Assembly (NCBI GenBank): GCA_029858305.1
Contig: JAOUFI010000006.1
Coordinates: 9,851 to 73,850 of the forward strand
Reading direction: 5' to 3'
Length of the DNA: 64,000 nt
From: Candidatus Thorarchaeota archaeon
Lineage (GTDB): Archaea > Asgardarchaeota > Thorarchaeia > Thorarchaeales > Thorarchaeaceae
In this document: piece after piece, positions 808 to 12,725 of the stretch
How the letters are laid out: every line of letters starts with the position of its first letter
Position numbering within the stretch: position 1 is the stretch's first letter
Made by a program: the position numbers and the translations under genes
The notes under the pieces: generated by a model
The model's database searches: none
What the model saw: the letters and a program-made list of their open reading frames with translations, nothing else
Told to the model about the DNA's origin: nothing

Positions 808-1308
808 TTACACCACAATATCATAATCAGAATGACCACATGACACACAACGGATCTCGTCTTCCAAGACTTCTGCCACCTGACTATCACAGATTGTACA
901 TTTTTGAACAATTAAATTCTCAAGGTTCAGAGAATGTAGAATCTTGCCAACTTCTATTAGAGATGTATACTCAAACAAAACTTTTCCATCAGCCCCCATA
1001 ACCATTTTCGAAATAGAATCAGAATCAGATTGATGGAATAATAAAACTGGTTTCATCAGGTCAATAGCCAACATGATCTCCATTCCAACTCCAAGCGATG
1101 GACTTGAAATCTCAGCAATTAGAAAATCACACAATCGAACGTATTCGACATCACGTTTGAATATTAATTTTGGTTCTCTTTCTTGAAGTAGCTGAGGTGC
1201 AAATACTCTAATCCCCTTATTCTCTAAAACTTTAATCACAGTAGAACAGAAATCATCCCTGCGTAGTGACGGATGAATGATAGGTGCTGAGAGATATACA
1301 AAGACCAT
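808..1308 (-). CDS. Nucleoside 2-deoxyribosyltransferase / DNPH1(Rcl)-like protein with C-terminal zinc ribbon
   Basis: VYLSAP, RD..D..IAE..PSLGVGME motifs; C-terminal CxxC...CxxC. Confidence 0.75.
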   Translation of the reverse strand: MVFVYLSAPIIHPSLRRDDFCSTVIKVLENKGIRVFAPQLLQEREPKLIFKRDVEYVRLCDFLIAEISSPSLGVGMEIMLAIDLMKPVLLFHQSDSDSISKMVMGADGKVLFEYTSLIEVGKILHSLNLENLIVQKCTICDSQVAEVLEDEIRCVSCGHSDYDIVV

Positions 1309-1340: not shown

Positions 1341-1700
1341 CTATTCTTCAAAAATCGTTGATTCCTTAGAAGCCCCTAGTTCTGTTATTGAAGGAACTGA
1401 GCCATCATCAGCGATATGTTCGTATTTTCCCGAGCGACCTAGCGAGAGCTGTACTTTTCCCTGCCATTCCTTCGCCCAACCATCCTCTATCTTTATGACC
1501 ATTCCTGCAGAGAGATCGTTACCTTCATTAAAACCCCAAAGAGAGAGAATTGCGGATCCAGAATCATCAGCCACCAGGACTTCTTTTAGCATAGTTTTAC
1601 GTCCCGCTCGAGTCTGAATAATTCTAGGAGATGCGATTGATATTATCCGGACGATAAGATCAGATACGCTTTTACTAGGCTCAACATCAGATAGCTTCAC
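1341..1700 (-). CDS. Single-OB-fold single-stranded DNA-binding protein (SSB/RPA-like)
   Basis: VADDSG..LSLWG..G.VIKI..GWAKEWQG..QLSLGR OB-fold signature; short acidic C-terminus. Confidence 0.8.
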   Translation of the reverse strand: MKLSDVEPSKSVSDLIVRIISIASPRIIQTRAGRKTMLKEVLVADDSGSAILSLWGFNEGNDLSAGMVIKIEDGWAKEWQGKVQLSLGRSGKYEHIADDGSVPSITELGASKESTIFEE

Positions 1701-1765: not shown

Positions 1766-3793
1766 TTAATCCTCATCTTCACCTGAATCGACGAAATCTA
1801 GTAGACGACTCAGTTCATCTAATGATTCATTATTTATAGGTGAGTTCTCAGAGTGCTGCTTAGTGTCATTAGAATCTTTTTTCTTGGTTCCACCTACAGC
1901 ACTATCCAGAGGGCCGAGAATAAGCTCTAACTCCTCAAGTGACTCGGCATCAATCTCTTCTCGAATGTCGGACTCCCCCTCGGTAGGAGTAGCCTCATCA
2001 CTCTTAAATGCTTCAAGAGCTTCATCGATTTCAGTATGAGAAACAAGATCAAGTTCTGCGGAGATGAATTCATCGGCCTCGAGAGCTTCGAATATAATTT
2101 CTTTGGCCATTTTTACGCCTCCGTTGTTTTCTTCAGCAATCGGTTCTATTCCGAGTTTCTCTTCAGGTGGAAGTTCCTCTTCAGCAAAATCGATTTGTGG
2201 TAATTGTTCTTCTACTTCTATCGAAGATTCTTCCTTTGGCAATTCAATGGAAATATCCATGGAGATTTCATCAATCTCTTTCGACTCCTCCATGTGGGAG
2301 GGTTCAAATCCTTCACCCTCTTCCAATTGCATGCCTGTCGCAAAAGCATCTTCTTCTGTAGTCTGGTCCGGTCCTATTGCTTCACTGAGAGCATCAGCTT
2401 TAGCAAGTTCGACTTCTTGGTGTATCAAATGTTCCTCAGAGAACTCTACTTCTAGAGGAAATGATTGAATCTCTGCTTCAAGCGGAGATACAGAGATTTC
2501 TACTTCCTCCTCTACTTCCTTAGTTTCCTCTATAATGGCCTCAGGAATCGGTTCAGAAGATGCAATCTCATCTTCGACTTTTACTTCAGGCTCGGGTTCA
2601 AAGAATTCTACTTCCGCCTCTGCTTCCTCAATCTCCTCTAACATCACATCAGGAGCTAGTTCCGGAGAAACAATCTCTTCTTTTGTTTCTTCTTCTTCAA
2701 AGAGATCTTCATCTACTTCTTCAATGACTTCTTCAATTATCTCATAGTCATTTAGGTTCTCAATGACATGTCCATCTTCGTCAACCAAGACTTCCTCGAC
2801 CACTTCAATAGTCTCGAATTCAGATTCTTCAATCTCTGCAGTTTCCCTTCGTTCCTGCATCGCATCTGTCTCAGCTATCGCTTCCTTGGTTGCGGCATCT
2901 GTAAACTTCAAGAGCTCGGATGCCGGAAGATCCGGAAGAGCAACACCAACATATTGTGCTGCAGCAGTCATCAAAATCCTTAGCATCTCATCACGCCTAG
3001 CCTTGTCAATTGCAACCATTGGAAAGGTAGGAATTCCTAGTATCTTCTGAACGACCTCAGGTTTCATAGCGTTTGGTTTATCCTGTTTATTAGCCAGAGC
3101 AAAGACGGGAACCTTCGGAGCGTCTCGTTTAATGAGCTTGAGAATGTCCTTACTGATTATCACGTTACGAAGAGCTGAATCACAAACTAAGAAGATTACA
3201 TCAGCTCCATGGAAATAGAATCGCCATAGTGTTCGAAAGCGCTCTTGTCCTGCAAAATCCCAGAGGACAAGACTGTAGTTGCCAAATCTGATGTTTTCAA
3301 CAGTTTCAAGATTGAGAGCTATTGTTGGGACATATTGCAGTGGTGGTGTGTCTCCAAGTAAAAGGTGGAGTGTTGTTGTTTTTCCAACACCACCCTCTCC
3401 AACTAGCGCAATTTTCAATCTGGTGGTCACAGATGGTTCAACAAGTTTTTCATACCCTTGCTTCACAGCGTCAAGTCCTGATTTTTTCAGCTCCTTTCTC
3501 ATGAGCTTCGATGCAGCTTCAACCTTCTCGAATATGCTTGATTCGTCTTCTCCTTTATCAGTAACAAACAGTAAAAGAAGGTCTGAAACCAAGTCCACTC
3601 CATGAAACTTGTGATCTCCTAATATTAGTGCTAGACTTTCTAGATGCGTATCATTGCTCTTTTCAGAACGAAGTTCTTCCCTTGTTTTGACATATTCGCT
3701 AAGAATCTCATGTGACACATCAACGGGCCAATATTTAGTGAATGCAATTATTTCTTGTGTTGAGATGCGTATAAGGAAGGTGTTGTGAATCAC
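1766..3793 (-). CDS. Arf-related small GTPase with N-terminal longin-like domain and long acidic C-terminal tail
   Basis: G1 GEGGVGKTT, G2 PTI, G3 WDFAGQ followed by RTLWRFYF, G4 ANKQD; ~125-aa N-terminal domain; ~380-aa Glu-rich tail. Confidence 0.85.
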   Translation of the reverse strand: MIHNTFLIRISTQEIIAFTKYWPVDVSHEILSEYVKTREELRSEKSNDTHLESLALILGDHKFHGVDLVSDLLLLFVTDKGEDESSIFEKVEAASKLMRKELKKSGLDAVKQGYEKLVEPSVTTRLKIALVGEGGVGKTTTLHLLLGDTPPLQYVPTIALNLETVENIRFGNYSLVLWDFAGQERFRTLWRFYFHGADVIFLVCDSALRNVIISKDILKLIKRDAPKVPVFALANKQDKPNAMKPEVVQKILGIPTFPMVAIDKARRDEMLRILMTAAAQYVGVALPDLPASELLKFTDAATKEAIAETDAMQERRETAEIEESEFETIEVVEEVLVDEDGHVIENLNDYEIIEEVIEEVDEDLFEEEETKEEIVSPELAPDVMLEEIEEAEAEVEFFEPEPEVKVEDEIASSEPIPEAIIEETKEVEEEVEISVSPLEAEIQSFPLEVEFSEEHLIHQEVELAKADALSEAIGPDQTTEEDAFATGMQLEEGEGFEPSHMEESKEIDEISMDISIELPKEESSIEVEEQLPQIDFAEEELPPEEKLGIEPIAEENNGGVKMAKEIIFEALEADEFISAELDLVSHTEIDEALEAFKSDEATPTEGESDIREEIDAESLEELELILGPLDSAVGGTKKKDSNDTKQHSENSPINNESLDELSRLLDFVDSGEDED

Positions 3794-3916
3794 TATTACT
3801 TCACCAGATTATCTAATAGATTATACACTGTTGTGGAGAATCCACTCAATATAGAGTAGGATATTACAGGCTTGATTAACTTGTTTTGTGTGTACAATCT
3901 TTGATTTTCAAGAAAC

Positions 3917-4162
3917 AAGTTAGATGTTGGGGGTTCAGAGAACCCCAAACATCCGTTGGAGCGTGTTCTTCCACAGGAGCGGCAAAATTCGTTTATGCGC
4001 AAGAACAGTAGCAGTTCACACTGCAATTAGGGACTAGAACTCGTGGGACCGTGTATTGCGAGTTCCTGACGGGGGAAGACCGCCACCTGTGTGAAGTTCA
4101 CAATGGATGAAACCCTAAATCGCCATAAGAAGCTTTCTGGTTTACCAAAAAAAGTTAGATGT
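3917..4162 (+). other. Structured non-coding element bounded by 11-bp direct repeat AAGTTAGATGT (candidate ncRNA or non-autonomous mobile element)
   Basis: Repeat at 3917-3927 and 4152-4162; several internal helices; G-U pairs favour the + strand; GC-richer than the AT-rich flanks. Confidence 0.55.
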
Positions 4163-4290
4163 GTCTATTTTCTTGATTCACAACTTATAGGTCTCTTTTT
4201 TGTAATATTCGCAAGAAAATATATTGGAATTGTGAATTTAGCAATACTGCTAATGTGTCAATAGTAAGCCCGCAATAGAATTTTCATAAC

Positions 4291-5430
4291 TCATCGAGGG
4301 AAGTTATCTCGTAGGAGCCTGAGATGCTGATGAACCATCTCCATTGCCTTAGGATCATCGGGAGTCTTTTCCAAGTCAGTTACAAGAGTTTGCAAGAAAT
4401 ACTCTGGGAAGAATAGCCGAACCCTAATATCATTCAGAAGAAACAGCCATTTATCATATTCACCAGAAGGTCCTTTCCTACGCTTCTCTGAAACAACTCT
4501 GAATTTCTTGAGAGTCTGAATTGCCTCCTTCAGCTCCTTTGGAGGAATACCTAGTGTAGCTTCCAATTCTGATATGTTAGCAGGACGCCTTCTGAGTTCA
4601 CTAAGTGTATCATAACAATCGGGGTCTGCTAATACTTGAGCCACAGATACCGTATCCTCAGGTGTCTTCTGCCATTCAGTGAGAAATTCAAGAACCTCCG
4701 ATTTGTACTCAGCTGCAAGTTCTGGATCGAGAACACTGCTTGCGGATTCCATTGCAACAAGCGGTGGGGCTCTAAATACTTCGAGGTCCTTAATCATAAA
4801 GACACAAGTACGGCCAATCTCATCGACCCATTCTGTCTTTACGAGTCCTAGTTCTTCAAAAGGAGCGATAATTGAGTCCACACTAACACTTGGAAGACCA
4901 GTGACCATCTTCAACCATTCTTCAAGTTCTTCTTTGGATATGCCTCCTTTCCAAAGTTTGGGAAAGACAGCCCTACTCACCTCATCGGAGAAAAGCCGTG
5001 CTAGTCGAGACTCATCGGTCATACCAGCAAGTCTGATAATTCGCCTGTAGGTGTTGTCCAGTTCATCCTGAAGTTCTGCGTCAGTCAATGCAACCACAGC
5101 ATTCGTAAGAGGAGTCACAATCGAGGTGATTGCAGCCTCGTACATCTTTGGATCCTCTGAGGGAGTAAGCAAGAGAGACACACAATACTGTTCCTCCTCC
5201 CTCACTATTCCAGTATAGTAGGATGCAACACCATACTCTTCACCACCAATTCGAATACTAAGTGATGAAAAACCAGCTGTGGCATCGCCCATGGCGTGAG
5301 AAGTGAAGATACGCATAATTTCTGTATTTAGATCTTCGCGATAATAATCAGCAAAGTCTGCAGGTACCTTCGCCTTCAGTACAGCTCCAATCTTTGAGTC
5401 CCAATCTATAAGCAGCATTGCAACCGGCAT
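4291..5430 (-). CDS. Longin/uDENN-like domain protein with C-terminal winged-helix domains
   Basis: N-terminal LLIDWDSKIGAVLKAKVP resembles the uDENN/NPRL2-type start motif; C-terminal ISELEATLGIPPKELKEAIQTLKKFRVV helix-turn-helix. Confidence 0.55.
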   Translation of the reverse strand: MPVAMLLIDWDSKIGAVLKAKVPADFADYYREDLNTEIMRIFTSHAMGDATAGFSSLSIRIGGEEYGVASYYTGIVREEEQYCVSLLLTPSEDPKMYEAAITSIVTPLTNAVVALTDAELQDELDNTYRRIIRLAGMTDESRLARLFSDEVSRAVFPKLWKGGISKEELEEWLKMVTGLPSVSVDSIIAPFEELGLVKTEWVDEIGRTCVFMIKDLEVFRAPPLVAMESASSVLDPELAAEYKSEVLEFLTEWQKTPEDTVSVAQVLADPDCYDTLSELRRRPANISELEATLGIPPKELKEAIQTLKKFRVVSEKRRKGPSGEYDKWLFLLNDIRVRLFFPEYFLQTLVTDLEKTPDDPKAMEMVHQHLRLLRDNFPR

Positions 5431-12188: not shown

Positions 12189-12725
12189 TTATTGTAGTGT
12201 GTATTTAGCCAACATATAGAATGCGTTTTCTACATTTTGCCCCGATAGAGCACTGGTTTCCAAATAGCCCGATAGGGCATTTTCCTCAACAAACTGCAGC
12301 GCCATTTCTCTCGTAATTACTCGATGTTCAACCAAATCAACTTTGTTCGCTAGCAGGATGATAGGAATCCTTTCACCAAGAGCATCCTCAGTTTCTTGAA
12401 TCCACTTTGGTAACTCGATCCATGTACTCTTTCTTGTACAGTCAAATAGAAGTAGAGCTCCTTTGCTTCCTCTATAATAGCTTCCACGAATGAAATCAAA
12501 ACGCTGTTGTCCTGCTAAGTCCCAGACGAGAAGCTTGACAACAACATTGCGACCATTTGCAGTTTCAACCTCGACAGTCTTTACAGCAAATTGCGAACCG
12601 ATAGTGACGATGTACTCTTCAGAGAACTTGTGGGTCAGGAAACGGTTGACTAGTGCGGTCTTTCCACTACCTCCTGCTCCGATCATCACGACCTTCCGCA
12701 TATAGTCGAAACCGCCACTACTCAA
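12189..12725 (-). CDS. Rab-like small GTPase
   Basis: GAGGSGKT, TIG, WDLAGQQRF, SYYRG, NKVD, ETSAL. Confidence 0.92.
   Translation of the reverse strand: MSSGGFDYMRKVVMIGAGGSGKTALVNRFLTHKFSEEYIVTIGSQFAVKTVEVETANGRNVVVKLLVWDLAGQQRFDFIRGSYYRGSKGALLLFDCTRKSTWIELPKWIQETEDALGERIPIILLANKVDLVEHRVITREMALQFVEENALSGYLETSALSGQNVENAFYMLAKYTLQ

Follow-up and report, generated by a model that had tools for sequence, protein, structure and literature searches.

A Thorarchaeota longin-GTPase fusion, most probably of the ArfL group, with a modular acidic tail and a linked neighbouring gene

We analysed a stretch of 64,000 nucleotides (nt) from a Candidatus Thorarchaeota archaeon (contig JAOUFI010000006.1, positions 9,851 to 73,850; hereafter the window) and concentrated on a minus-strand gene encoding a protein of 675 amino acids (aa). 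The protein consists of a longin domain, an intact small-GTPase (G) domain and a long acidic tail, in that order. On balance, the evidence tilts towards a reading in which the gene is a Thorarchaeota member of an Asgard-only family of longin-bearing small GTPases, most probably the published ArfL group, and in which a GTP switch, a built-in longin platform, a tail serving as a tether and the product of the upstream gene, N379 (379 aa), would act together.

The fusion of a longin domain to an Arf-like GTPase has been known since 2016, and the 675-aa protein adds one more member to a class already described. Box 1 of PMC4917890, citing Klinger et al. 2016 (cited also in PMC10933270 and 10.1101/2024.02.28.582541), counts 41 longin domains in Lokiarchaeum, five of which are fused to Arf-like small GTPases, and a passage of PMC10933270 describes a class of MK-D1 GTPases, Rag-like and annotated as Arf, that are fused to longin or roadblock domains. 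Rag-family GTPases with a longin fusion are mentioned in a passage by Liu et al. (10.1101/2020.10.19.343400), while longins resembling AP sigma and COPI zeta are already entered in Asgard catalogues of eukaryotic signature proteins, according to an excerpt of 10.64898/2026.10.28.762692. The first-pass annotation of this DNA had read the gene as one polypeptide joining two components that interact in eukaryotic coat recruitment. It is not a new Rosetta stone of Arf and adaptor, since such fusions were in the literature before and the G domain, by its signature, is no true Arf. Full-text literature searches returned no paper on the acidic tail or on the pair formed by N379 and the GTPase gene, which is not proof of absence.

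The open reading frame lies exactly where that annotation had placed it, with all four quoted strings present in the translation: RTLWRFYF (residues 187-194), ANKQD (234-238), LEELELIL (619-626) and DELSRLLDF (659-667). A word-indexed search for relatives of residues 1-290 returned 320 proteins at E<=1e-20 in the 371-1182 aa length band and 460 at E<=1e-3 in the 159-508 aa band. Among the best 120 of the 320 matches, identity over the first 290 residues was 78-100% and lengths ranged from 491 to 703 aa. The relatives share the N-terminal start MIH with the 675-aa protein in an alignment of 50 sequences. Because hundreds of relatives were found, a chance reading frame is excluded, and the gene, as judged from these matches, is real and widespread. 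A Pfam scan gave no match on residues 1-122 nor on the tail.

The N-terminal domain is predicted to adopt a longin fold, as the first-pass annotation had supposed. Its AlphaFold2 (AF2) model, built from a 44-row alignment, has a predicted local distance difference test (pLDDT) score of 91.7 and a predicted template modelling (pTM) score of 0.87. DSSP assigned strands to residues 2-9, 14-20, 56-58, 61-67 and 72-78 and helices to residues 28-44, 84-105 and 107-122. The resulting topology, beta-beta-alpha-beta-beta-beta-alpha-alpha, lacks an N-terminal helix and closes with two helices, as in longin domains, and the similarity to solved longin domains extends over the whole domain. We regard the longin assignment from this model as secure.

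We compared the N-domain model to known structures using Foldseek, where the top ranks went to AP-1 sigma3, AP-1 mu, AP-3 sigma and COPI zeta/delta (E 5e-5 to 2e-4). The closest structural matches were the longins of delta-COP and AP mu/sigma. VAMP7, TRAPP, SRX and roadblock folds trail the best longin matches by a few Z units, and the longins of VAMP7, Gse1 and synbindin lie within about 2 Z units of the top. We combined 26 N-domains from the loci of several Asgard lineages into a profile, which among PDB sequences found AP-3 mu1 first (E 0.0022) and then AP-4 sigma1 (E 0.0064), aligned from residue 1; five of the nine top matches (E 0.0022 to 0.12) were AP mu or sigma subunits. Taken singly in Pfam, five of the 26 N-domains matched Fuz_longin_1 (best E 5.7e-7), three matched Clat_adaptor_s (PF01217, best E 0.0043), two Longin and one Sybindin. 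The N-domain of the 675-aa protein itself gave no Clat_adaptor_s match at E<=10 and none to Fuz_longin_1, Longin or Sybindin. An AP-like longin is the best match for the domain, though not an exclusive one. No adaptin-like gene was seen among the scanned neighbours, a genome-wide adaptin search not having been made.

The 26-sequence alignment has two invariant positions and two others with the same residue in 90% or more of the sequences. In an exhaustive HMMER search with the N-domain alone, 23 of 1.84 billion cluster representatives matched at E<=1e-3; in 22 the matching region lies N-terminally or close to it, and the remaining one is an unrelated repeat protein; the N-domain is therefore narrow at the sequence level. 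Two distant relatives of the N-domain, P0134 and P0138 (513 and 515 aa), carry a longin domain, a G domain and a further region of about 200 aa. By eye, the opening strands of that region resemble another longin/roadblock unit and its end looks like a helix-turn-helix. BLASTP of both proteins against N379 found nothing significant.

The G domain, judged by its residues, is an intact Ras-superfamily GTP switch. G1 reads GEGGVGKT (residues 132-139), switch I carries Thr157, G3 reads DFAGQ with the catalytic Gln (179-183), switch II RTLWRFYF and G4 NKQD (235-238), and G5 contains Ala261; the 50-sequence alignment shows no variation at these positions. On residues 123-262, Pfam ranked Arf best among GTPase families (77 bits, cut-off 22.3), followed by Roc (65.9) and Ras (51.8), and the Gtr1_RagA hidden Markov model (HMM) reached 18.4 bits, under its cut-off of 22, so that the domain is not of Rag/Gtr type by this measure. 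A PDB sequence search gave 692 matches with Arf1 first (E 1.5e-19). The best 60 of the 692 are Arf, Arl or Arf fusions, bar 8oun and 8oum, which are titled 'GTP-binding protein'; 8OUM is an Asgard Arf structure (PMC11914678).

The signature residues point elsewhere. Arf proteins are marked by Leu-Asp in G1 (GLDxxGKT) and Gly-Gly in G3 (DxGGQ) (PMC11914678, section 6), and the GEGGVGKT and DFAGQ of the 675-aa protein show neither mark. The N-terminal amphipathic helix of Arf is likewise missing, its place being occupied by the 123-residue longin domain; some AArfs also bear extra N-terminal domains such as longin (PMC11914678, section 6). Among the rows listed for the longin-GTPase family, 26 of 31 read GxGGVGK[ST] or GxSGVGKT in G1, whereas strong-Arf Asgard proteins mostly read GL[DE]xxGKT. 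The Gly mark in G3 discriminates poorly, as top-scoring Asgard Arf-HMM proteins also read DVAGQ. We attempted to type the G domain by structure and rejected this approach: the model of the longin and G domains together is too poor at the switch, and Foldseek mixes Arf, Arl and Rab proteins (Sec4, Rab27, Rab33) at E of about 1e-6 and root-mean-square deviations of 6-10 A. The earlier identification of an Arf-type GTPase holds for overall similarity but not for the P-loop or the N-terminal helix, and the sequence comparisons define the domain as Arf-like by similarity and no true Arf by signature.

We collected 79 longin-GTPase loci from records titled Thor-, Hermod-, Odin-, Jord-, Frey-, Hod- and Promethearchaeota; the source names of the relatives are mostly Thorarchaeota, with some Loki/Promethearchaeota, Hodarchaeota and Hermodarchaeota. 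In the searches made, members turned up solely in Asgard records, and the family is Asgard-wide. The relatives fall into two groups: long-tailed orthologs, and shorter proteins (about 305 aa) with roughly 50% identity whose sequence ends soon after the G domain. Seven isolates carry both types, and the genome of the window holds three longin-GTPase paralogs. The homologs in Hermodarchaeota, Jordarchaeales and Freyarchaeota also stop soon after the G domain.

An Arf HMM search at E<=1e-25 covered 61 Asgard genomes. It gave strong Arf proteins (95-162 bits) in 12 of them, and none in the seven from the window's own family; Rag-HMM proteins were absent from the five genomes of that family that were covered, the window's own genome being included in both counts. 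A tree of G domains was computed from 30 Arf-type, 16 Rag-HMM, 16 Ras-HMM and 29 longin-GTPase family sequences (91 rows, 159 columns), using Asgard sequences alone; the rows L134 and L135 'f2', in which no G4 motif was found, were dropped. The longin-GTPase family forms one clade on a stem of 1.36 changes per site, supported at 99 by the Shimodaira-Hasegawa-like approximate likelihood ratio test (SH-aLRT), which lies outside the 30 strong-Arf rows and apart from the Rag- and Ras-type Asgard GTPases. The Rag and Ras types each form one clade (99), and the Arf type coheres weakly (76). For the sister of the family, the tree allows Arf-, Rag- and Ras-type pairings alike.

Published descriptions point to a name for this clade. 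A passage of 10.1101/2024.02.28.582541 describes an ArfL group that is Asgard-only and without direct relation to eukaryotic Arfs, and an older 'Arfl' group was kept out of the Arf clade and placed near Rag (PMC11914678). The family of the 675-aa protein is most probably ArfL, because it is found in Asgard records, annotated as Arf-like, set apart from the ArfR type and, in some members, fused to a longin domain.

The tail (residues 291-675) confirms the earlier description of a Glu-rich acidic extension of about 380 aa: its 385 residues are 27% Glu, with 133 Asp and Glu against 20 Lys and Arg, a net charge of -113. It is not built of tandem repeats, the sole array being two 24-nt copies at 2688-2735. 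An alignment of 129 long orthologs served as the tail profile and revealed five islands (Table 1; the last at about residues 652-668) with mean column conservation of 0.71-0.92, separated by linkers with conservation of 0.10-0.48 and many indels. Visual inspection still recognises the islands in representatives whose core identity is 65-70%, and module 1 also closes the tail-less Thorarchaeota paralogs. Thus, the Thorarchaeota tail, as seen in the alignment, is a variable acidic linker with five conserved short modules and not low-complexity padding; the contrast between islands and linkers is real, though sampled at shallow depth.

Module 5 has the highest helical hydrophobic moment of the tail (0.59; tail mean 0.22, standard deviation 0.12), in agreement with the amphipathic C-terminal motif that had been pointed out around DELSRLLDF. 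The [DE]xxxL[LI] motifs emphasised by the first-pass annotation do lie within conserved islands, but they number two against 1.66 expected from 2000 shuffles, which is chance level. The strict motif at site 620 (module 4) is kept in 36 of the 129 orthologs. At site 660 (module 5), ExxxLL is kept in 105 of the 129 and in none of the seven whose core identity is under 75%; in these, an ELExIL-type motif occurs twice instead.

N379 is found in 38 of the 41 Thorarchaeota loci that have a long-tailed ortholog, and the remaining three have less than 250 nt of upstream flank. It is 84-100% identical among these loci, exceeding the core of the GTPase (67-91%) and the other neighbours. Full-length homologs at 31-33% identity adjoin longin-GTPase genes in Jordarchaeales, Freyarchaeota and Hermodarchaeota. 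In the Jordarchaeales locus the N379 homolog and the GTPase gene lie on the same strand with a gap of 36 nt and are followed by a gene for a 112-aa protein; the Freyarchaeota locus has the same arrangement with a gap of 14 nt and a gene for a homologous 110-aa protein. The Hermodarchaeota loci are tight same-strand arrays, one of which runs GTPase, 299-aa gene, GTPase, N379 homolog. None of the other Thorarchaeota neighbours is retained in the loci of these three lineages, and N379 occurs in none of the ten loci of the group at 49-57% identity, which consists of the tail-less Thorarchaeota paralogs and close kin. Because N379 homologs adjoin longin-GTPase genes in four Asgard lineages, we propose that N379 is a likely partner of the longin-GTPase.

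The fold of N379 is suggested by faint signals. Residues 256-330, approximately, match HTH_20 in seven of 12 members (best E 5e-4, weak), an ArsR/SmtB NCBIfam model gave 21.5 bits, below its cut-off of 55, and the N379 profile found weak winged-helix matches alone among PDB sequences (best PH1932, E 0.0063). In the Atlas, whole N379 matched unnamed Asgard clusters alone (scores 0.95-0.96). Residues 1-140 gave a weak match of 0.81 to a cluster with 19% NPR2 members, a score that shuffled proteins reach one-third of the time. NPRL2-like and DENN-like families are described in Thorarchaeota in a passage by Liu et al. (10.1101/2020.10.19.343400). We considered N379 as such a protein and found no confirmation, the NPR2, DENN and uDENN HMMs having no match on N379 in its own genome at E<=10. 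A relationship to the longin family was likewise not confirmed, with an hhalign profile-profile probability of 0.3. A complex prediction of residues 1-360 with GTP/Mg against N379 had a median score of 0.33, compared with 0.34 for an unrelated-partner control, and speaks neither for nor against binding.

Table 1. Features of the longin-GTPase gene and of its surroundings, in positions of the window
Feature	Position	Strand	Remarks
Whole gene: longin, Arf-like (probable ArfL-type) GTPase and acidic tail	1766..3793	-	675 aa; GTG start; stop codon 1766-1768
Longin domain (predicted), residues 1-123	3425..3793	-	
Small-GTPase domain, residues 124-285	2939..3424	-	Pfam Arf 77 bits; top PDB sequence match Arf1, E 1.5e-19
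Tail module 1, residues 286-312	2858..2938	-	PDLPxxELL[KR]F, then helix-like stretch; conservation 0.92 and 0.74 (two 15-residue blocks)
Tail module 2, residues 328-358	2720..2812	-	hydrophobic/acidic alternation round a conserved DEDG turn; conservation 0.81 and 0.72
Variable acidic linker, residues 359-561	2111..2719	-	indel-rich; 15 prolines; conservation 0.10-0.48, occupancy down to 0.21
Tail module 3, residues 562-600	1994..2110	-	without Pro or Gly; conservation 0.71-0.75
Tail module 4, residues 613-633	1895..1957	-	ELExILGP-type motif, contains LEELELIL; conservation 0.83
Tail module 5, residues 652-668	1790..1840	-	candidate C-terminal amphipathic helix, contains DELSRLLDF; hydrophobic moment 0.59
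Spacer between N379 and the GTPase gene	3794-4290, core about 3925-4135	-	invariant blocks across 11 Thorarchaeota loci, surroundings diverge
Upstream neighbour N379	4291..5430	-	379 aa; Asgard family; weak winged-helix signal at about residues 256-330
Downstream OB-fold protein	1341-1700	-	119 aa; weak RPA/SSB-type matches, E 0.0012; syntenic in Thorarchaeota only
Downstream nucleoside 2-deoxyribosyltransferase-like protein	808-1308	-	zinc-ribbon-like C-terminal end; syntenic in Thorarchaeota only
Separate Ras-type small GTPase	12189-12725	-	178 aa; no extra domain; about 8 kb off; Pfam Ras 151.9 bits

We propose the following mechanism for the 675-aa protein. The G domain would work as a normal GTP/GDP switch, because all nucleotide-binding and catalytic positions are kept. 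By analogy, the longin domain could provide a built-in platform that pairs two molecules or docks a regulator beside the switch regions. Longin and roadblock domains act as platforms for small GTPases in SRX-SRbeta, MglB-MglA, the C-terminal domains of Rag proteins, TRAPP and the Mon1-Ccz1 longins. Part of this background is given in a passage of PMC10933270. The tail would serve as a flexible tether, whose modules, chiefly the C-terminal amphipathic helix, might each bind, over a short stretch, either a partner or the core of the protein itself, and N379 would most likely be a regulator or effector of the GTPase.

A more specific version of this mechanism is a long shot in our estimation. The modules would be switch-controlled docking helices, with the C-terminal module lying in the longin groove of the same protein in the GDP state, GTP freeing the tail and N379 setting the nucleotide state. 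Closed longin SNAREs and dileucine binding by AP sigma offer analogues of such a tail-in-groove state. If true, the switch-controlled tail would represent a one-protein, pre-eukaryotic case of a GTPase that opens an adaptor, specific to Thorarchaeota.

Several points weigh against the combination of ArfL membership with the switch, platform, tether and N379 partnership. The four steps of the mechanism are inferred. The relative orientation of the two domains is tentative, as the model of longin and G domain together has a pTM of 0.59 and a pLDDT of 44-70 across the switch region. Of the 129 orthologs in the tail profile, 122 have at least 75% core identity, and the conservation of the islands may partly reflect short divergence time. 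The ArfL label comes from features and published descriptions. In the tree, the free topology pairs the family with the Ras type at a support of 14. A constraint that joins the family to the Arf type is not rejected (p value of the approximately unbiased test, p-AU, 0.707; log-likelihood, lnL, 8.5 above the quick free tree), and neither is one that joins it to Rag (p-AU 0.678, lnL +6.1 against the same tree). At the locus, a whole six-gene block that contains N379 and the GTPase gene is syntenic in Thorarchaeota, so that synteny there could be mere relatedness and carries little weight alone. Moreover, a spacer of 497 nt that holds a conserved non-coding element separates the two Thorarchaeota genes, which therefore need not share one transcript.

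We weighed these data against three other explanations. The protein could be a Rosetta stone in which a longin of AP sigma/mu type is fused to a true Arf and dileucine-type motifs of the tail fold back into the longin domain, in the manner of cargo motifs in AP sigma, and hence a self-contained forerunner of Arf-driven coat recruitment. The ranking of delta-COP and AP mu/sigma as top structural and profile matches of the N-domain is in line with this idea, as are Arf1 and Arf6 as best PDB sequence matches of the G domain and the position of the C-terminal ExxxLL within a conserved amphipathic module. The phylogeny of the GTPase domain, proposed earlier as a check, is divided: a clade with the Arf-type Asgard GTPases is not rejected, but the family stands as its own clade outside the strong-Arf group. 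The P-loop is also non-Arf. Other longins (VAMP7, Gse1, synbindin) come within the same 2 Z units, Clat_adaptor_s matches just three of the 26 family members and not the N-domain of the protein itself, and the dileucine-type motifs stand at the number expected by chance, with the strict form gone and an ELExIL-type pair in its place in the seven orthologs below 75% core identity. Furthermore, the known contacts of Arf1 are with large adaptin and COP subunits rather than with longin domains, which also weighs against this fusion. We consider it quite improbable.

A Rag/GATOR-like module is unlikely. In it, the longin domain would dimerise two G domains, in the way of the C-terminal domains of Rag proteins, and N379 would be a longin protein of NPRL2 or DENN type that serves as GTPase-activating protein or guanine nucleotide exchange factor. 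The Gtr1_RagA score below its cut-off and the lack of Rag-HMM proteins in the five genomes of the window's own family argue against the Rag side of such a module, and the missing NPR2, DENN and uDENN matches and the low hhalign probability argue against the N379 side. The passages by Liu et al., the placement of the older 'Arfl' group near Rag (PMC11914678) and the joint clade of Rag and the family, which is not rejected, are in its favour; the NPR2-containing Atlas cluster is a weak lead, with a score that shuffled proteins match one-third of the time. We also give little credence to an ordinary stand-alone small GTPase, whose tail would merely be an acidic spacer or a solubility bristle with a passive role and whose longin domain would be a structural remnant. 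Such a protein would fit the highly variable length and sequence of the linkers, the tail-less paralogs of about 305 aa in the same genomes (both types in seven isolates) and the homologs of Hermodarchaeota, Jordarchaeales and Freyarchaeota that end soon after the G domain. However, five islands stay conserved amid diverging linkers and persist at 65-70% core identity, and the N-domain keeps its two invariant positions and two more at 90% or above across 26 sequences from several Asgard lineages. We thus retain the longin-bearing, probable ArfL-type switch with a modular tail and N379 as partner as the preferred reading.

The surroundings of the gene show further features. The conserved spacer element, folded as a single sequence, had a z-score of -0.56, which by itself gives no support for structure, and Rfam returned no match in the whole window at the gathering threshold. 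A GGTGA is conserved immediately 5' of the GTG start. The homologous proteins of 110-112 aa on the 3' side of the GTPase gene lie at L076:6830-7168 in Jordarchaeales (gap 1 nt) and L077:6526-6858 in Freyarchaeota (gap 12 nt). In both, the three-gene array consists of the N379 homolog, the GTPase and this small protein, which looks helical by eye, and Thorarchaeota have the OB-fold gene at the small-protein position. In Hermodarchaeota, proteins of about 300-340 aa at L056:6275-7174 and L052:10160-11176 both contain a Cys-rich stretch. The L056 gene is lodged between two longin-GTPase genes, and the first part of the L052 protein resembles the start of N379 (tblastn, 26% identity).

The debate on the origin of eukaryotic membrane traffic turns in large part on the small GTPases and longin domains of Asgard archaea. 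The gene brings no new kind of evidence to this debate, because the fusion was published before and the G domain, by its signature, is no true Arf. Its additions are modest, namely the modular Thorarchaeota tail and the linkage to N379. The latter points to a family of 360-430-aa proteins, encoded beside longin-GTPase genes in four Asgard lineages, as specific candidates for the role of regulator or effector, which no protein yet fills for this GTPase class.

Finally, we compared the 675-aa protein to known systems. The Asgard ArfL fusions are the nearest, with the same N-terminal longin directly before an Arf-annotated small GTPase in a clade apart from the true Arf-type Asgard GTPases; the passages on them cited here do not mention a 385-aa acidic tail with five modules. 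The signal recognition particle (SRP) receptor, where the SRX longin of SRalpha binds the Arf-related SRbeta (PDB 1nrj, 5ck3), is composed of two polypeptides, whereas the Thorarchaeota protein is one. It also lacks the NG domain of SRalpha and a membrane anchor, and SRX is not its best longin match. Rag/Gtr proteins and the Asgard Rag-like structures (PDB 8yl2, 9m28) have the reversed order, the Thorarchaeota platform being N-terminal and of longin rather than roadblock topology. In comparison with AP sigma/mu and COPI zeta/delta, which work with Arf1, the Thorarchaeota G domain is no true Arf by signature and lies outside the strong-Arf clade in the tree. In MglA/MglB and related prokaryotic modules of roadblock and GTPase, the roadblock domain of MglB forms a protein of its own and has an N-terminal helix, and the G domain of MglA differs from that of the Thorarchaeota protein.

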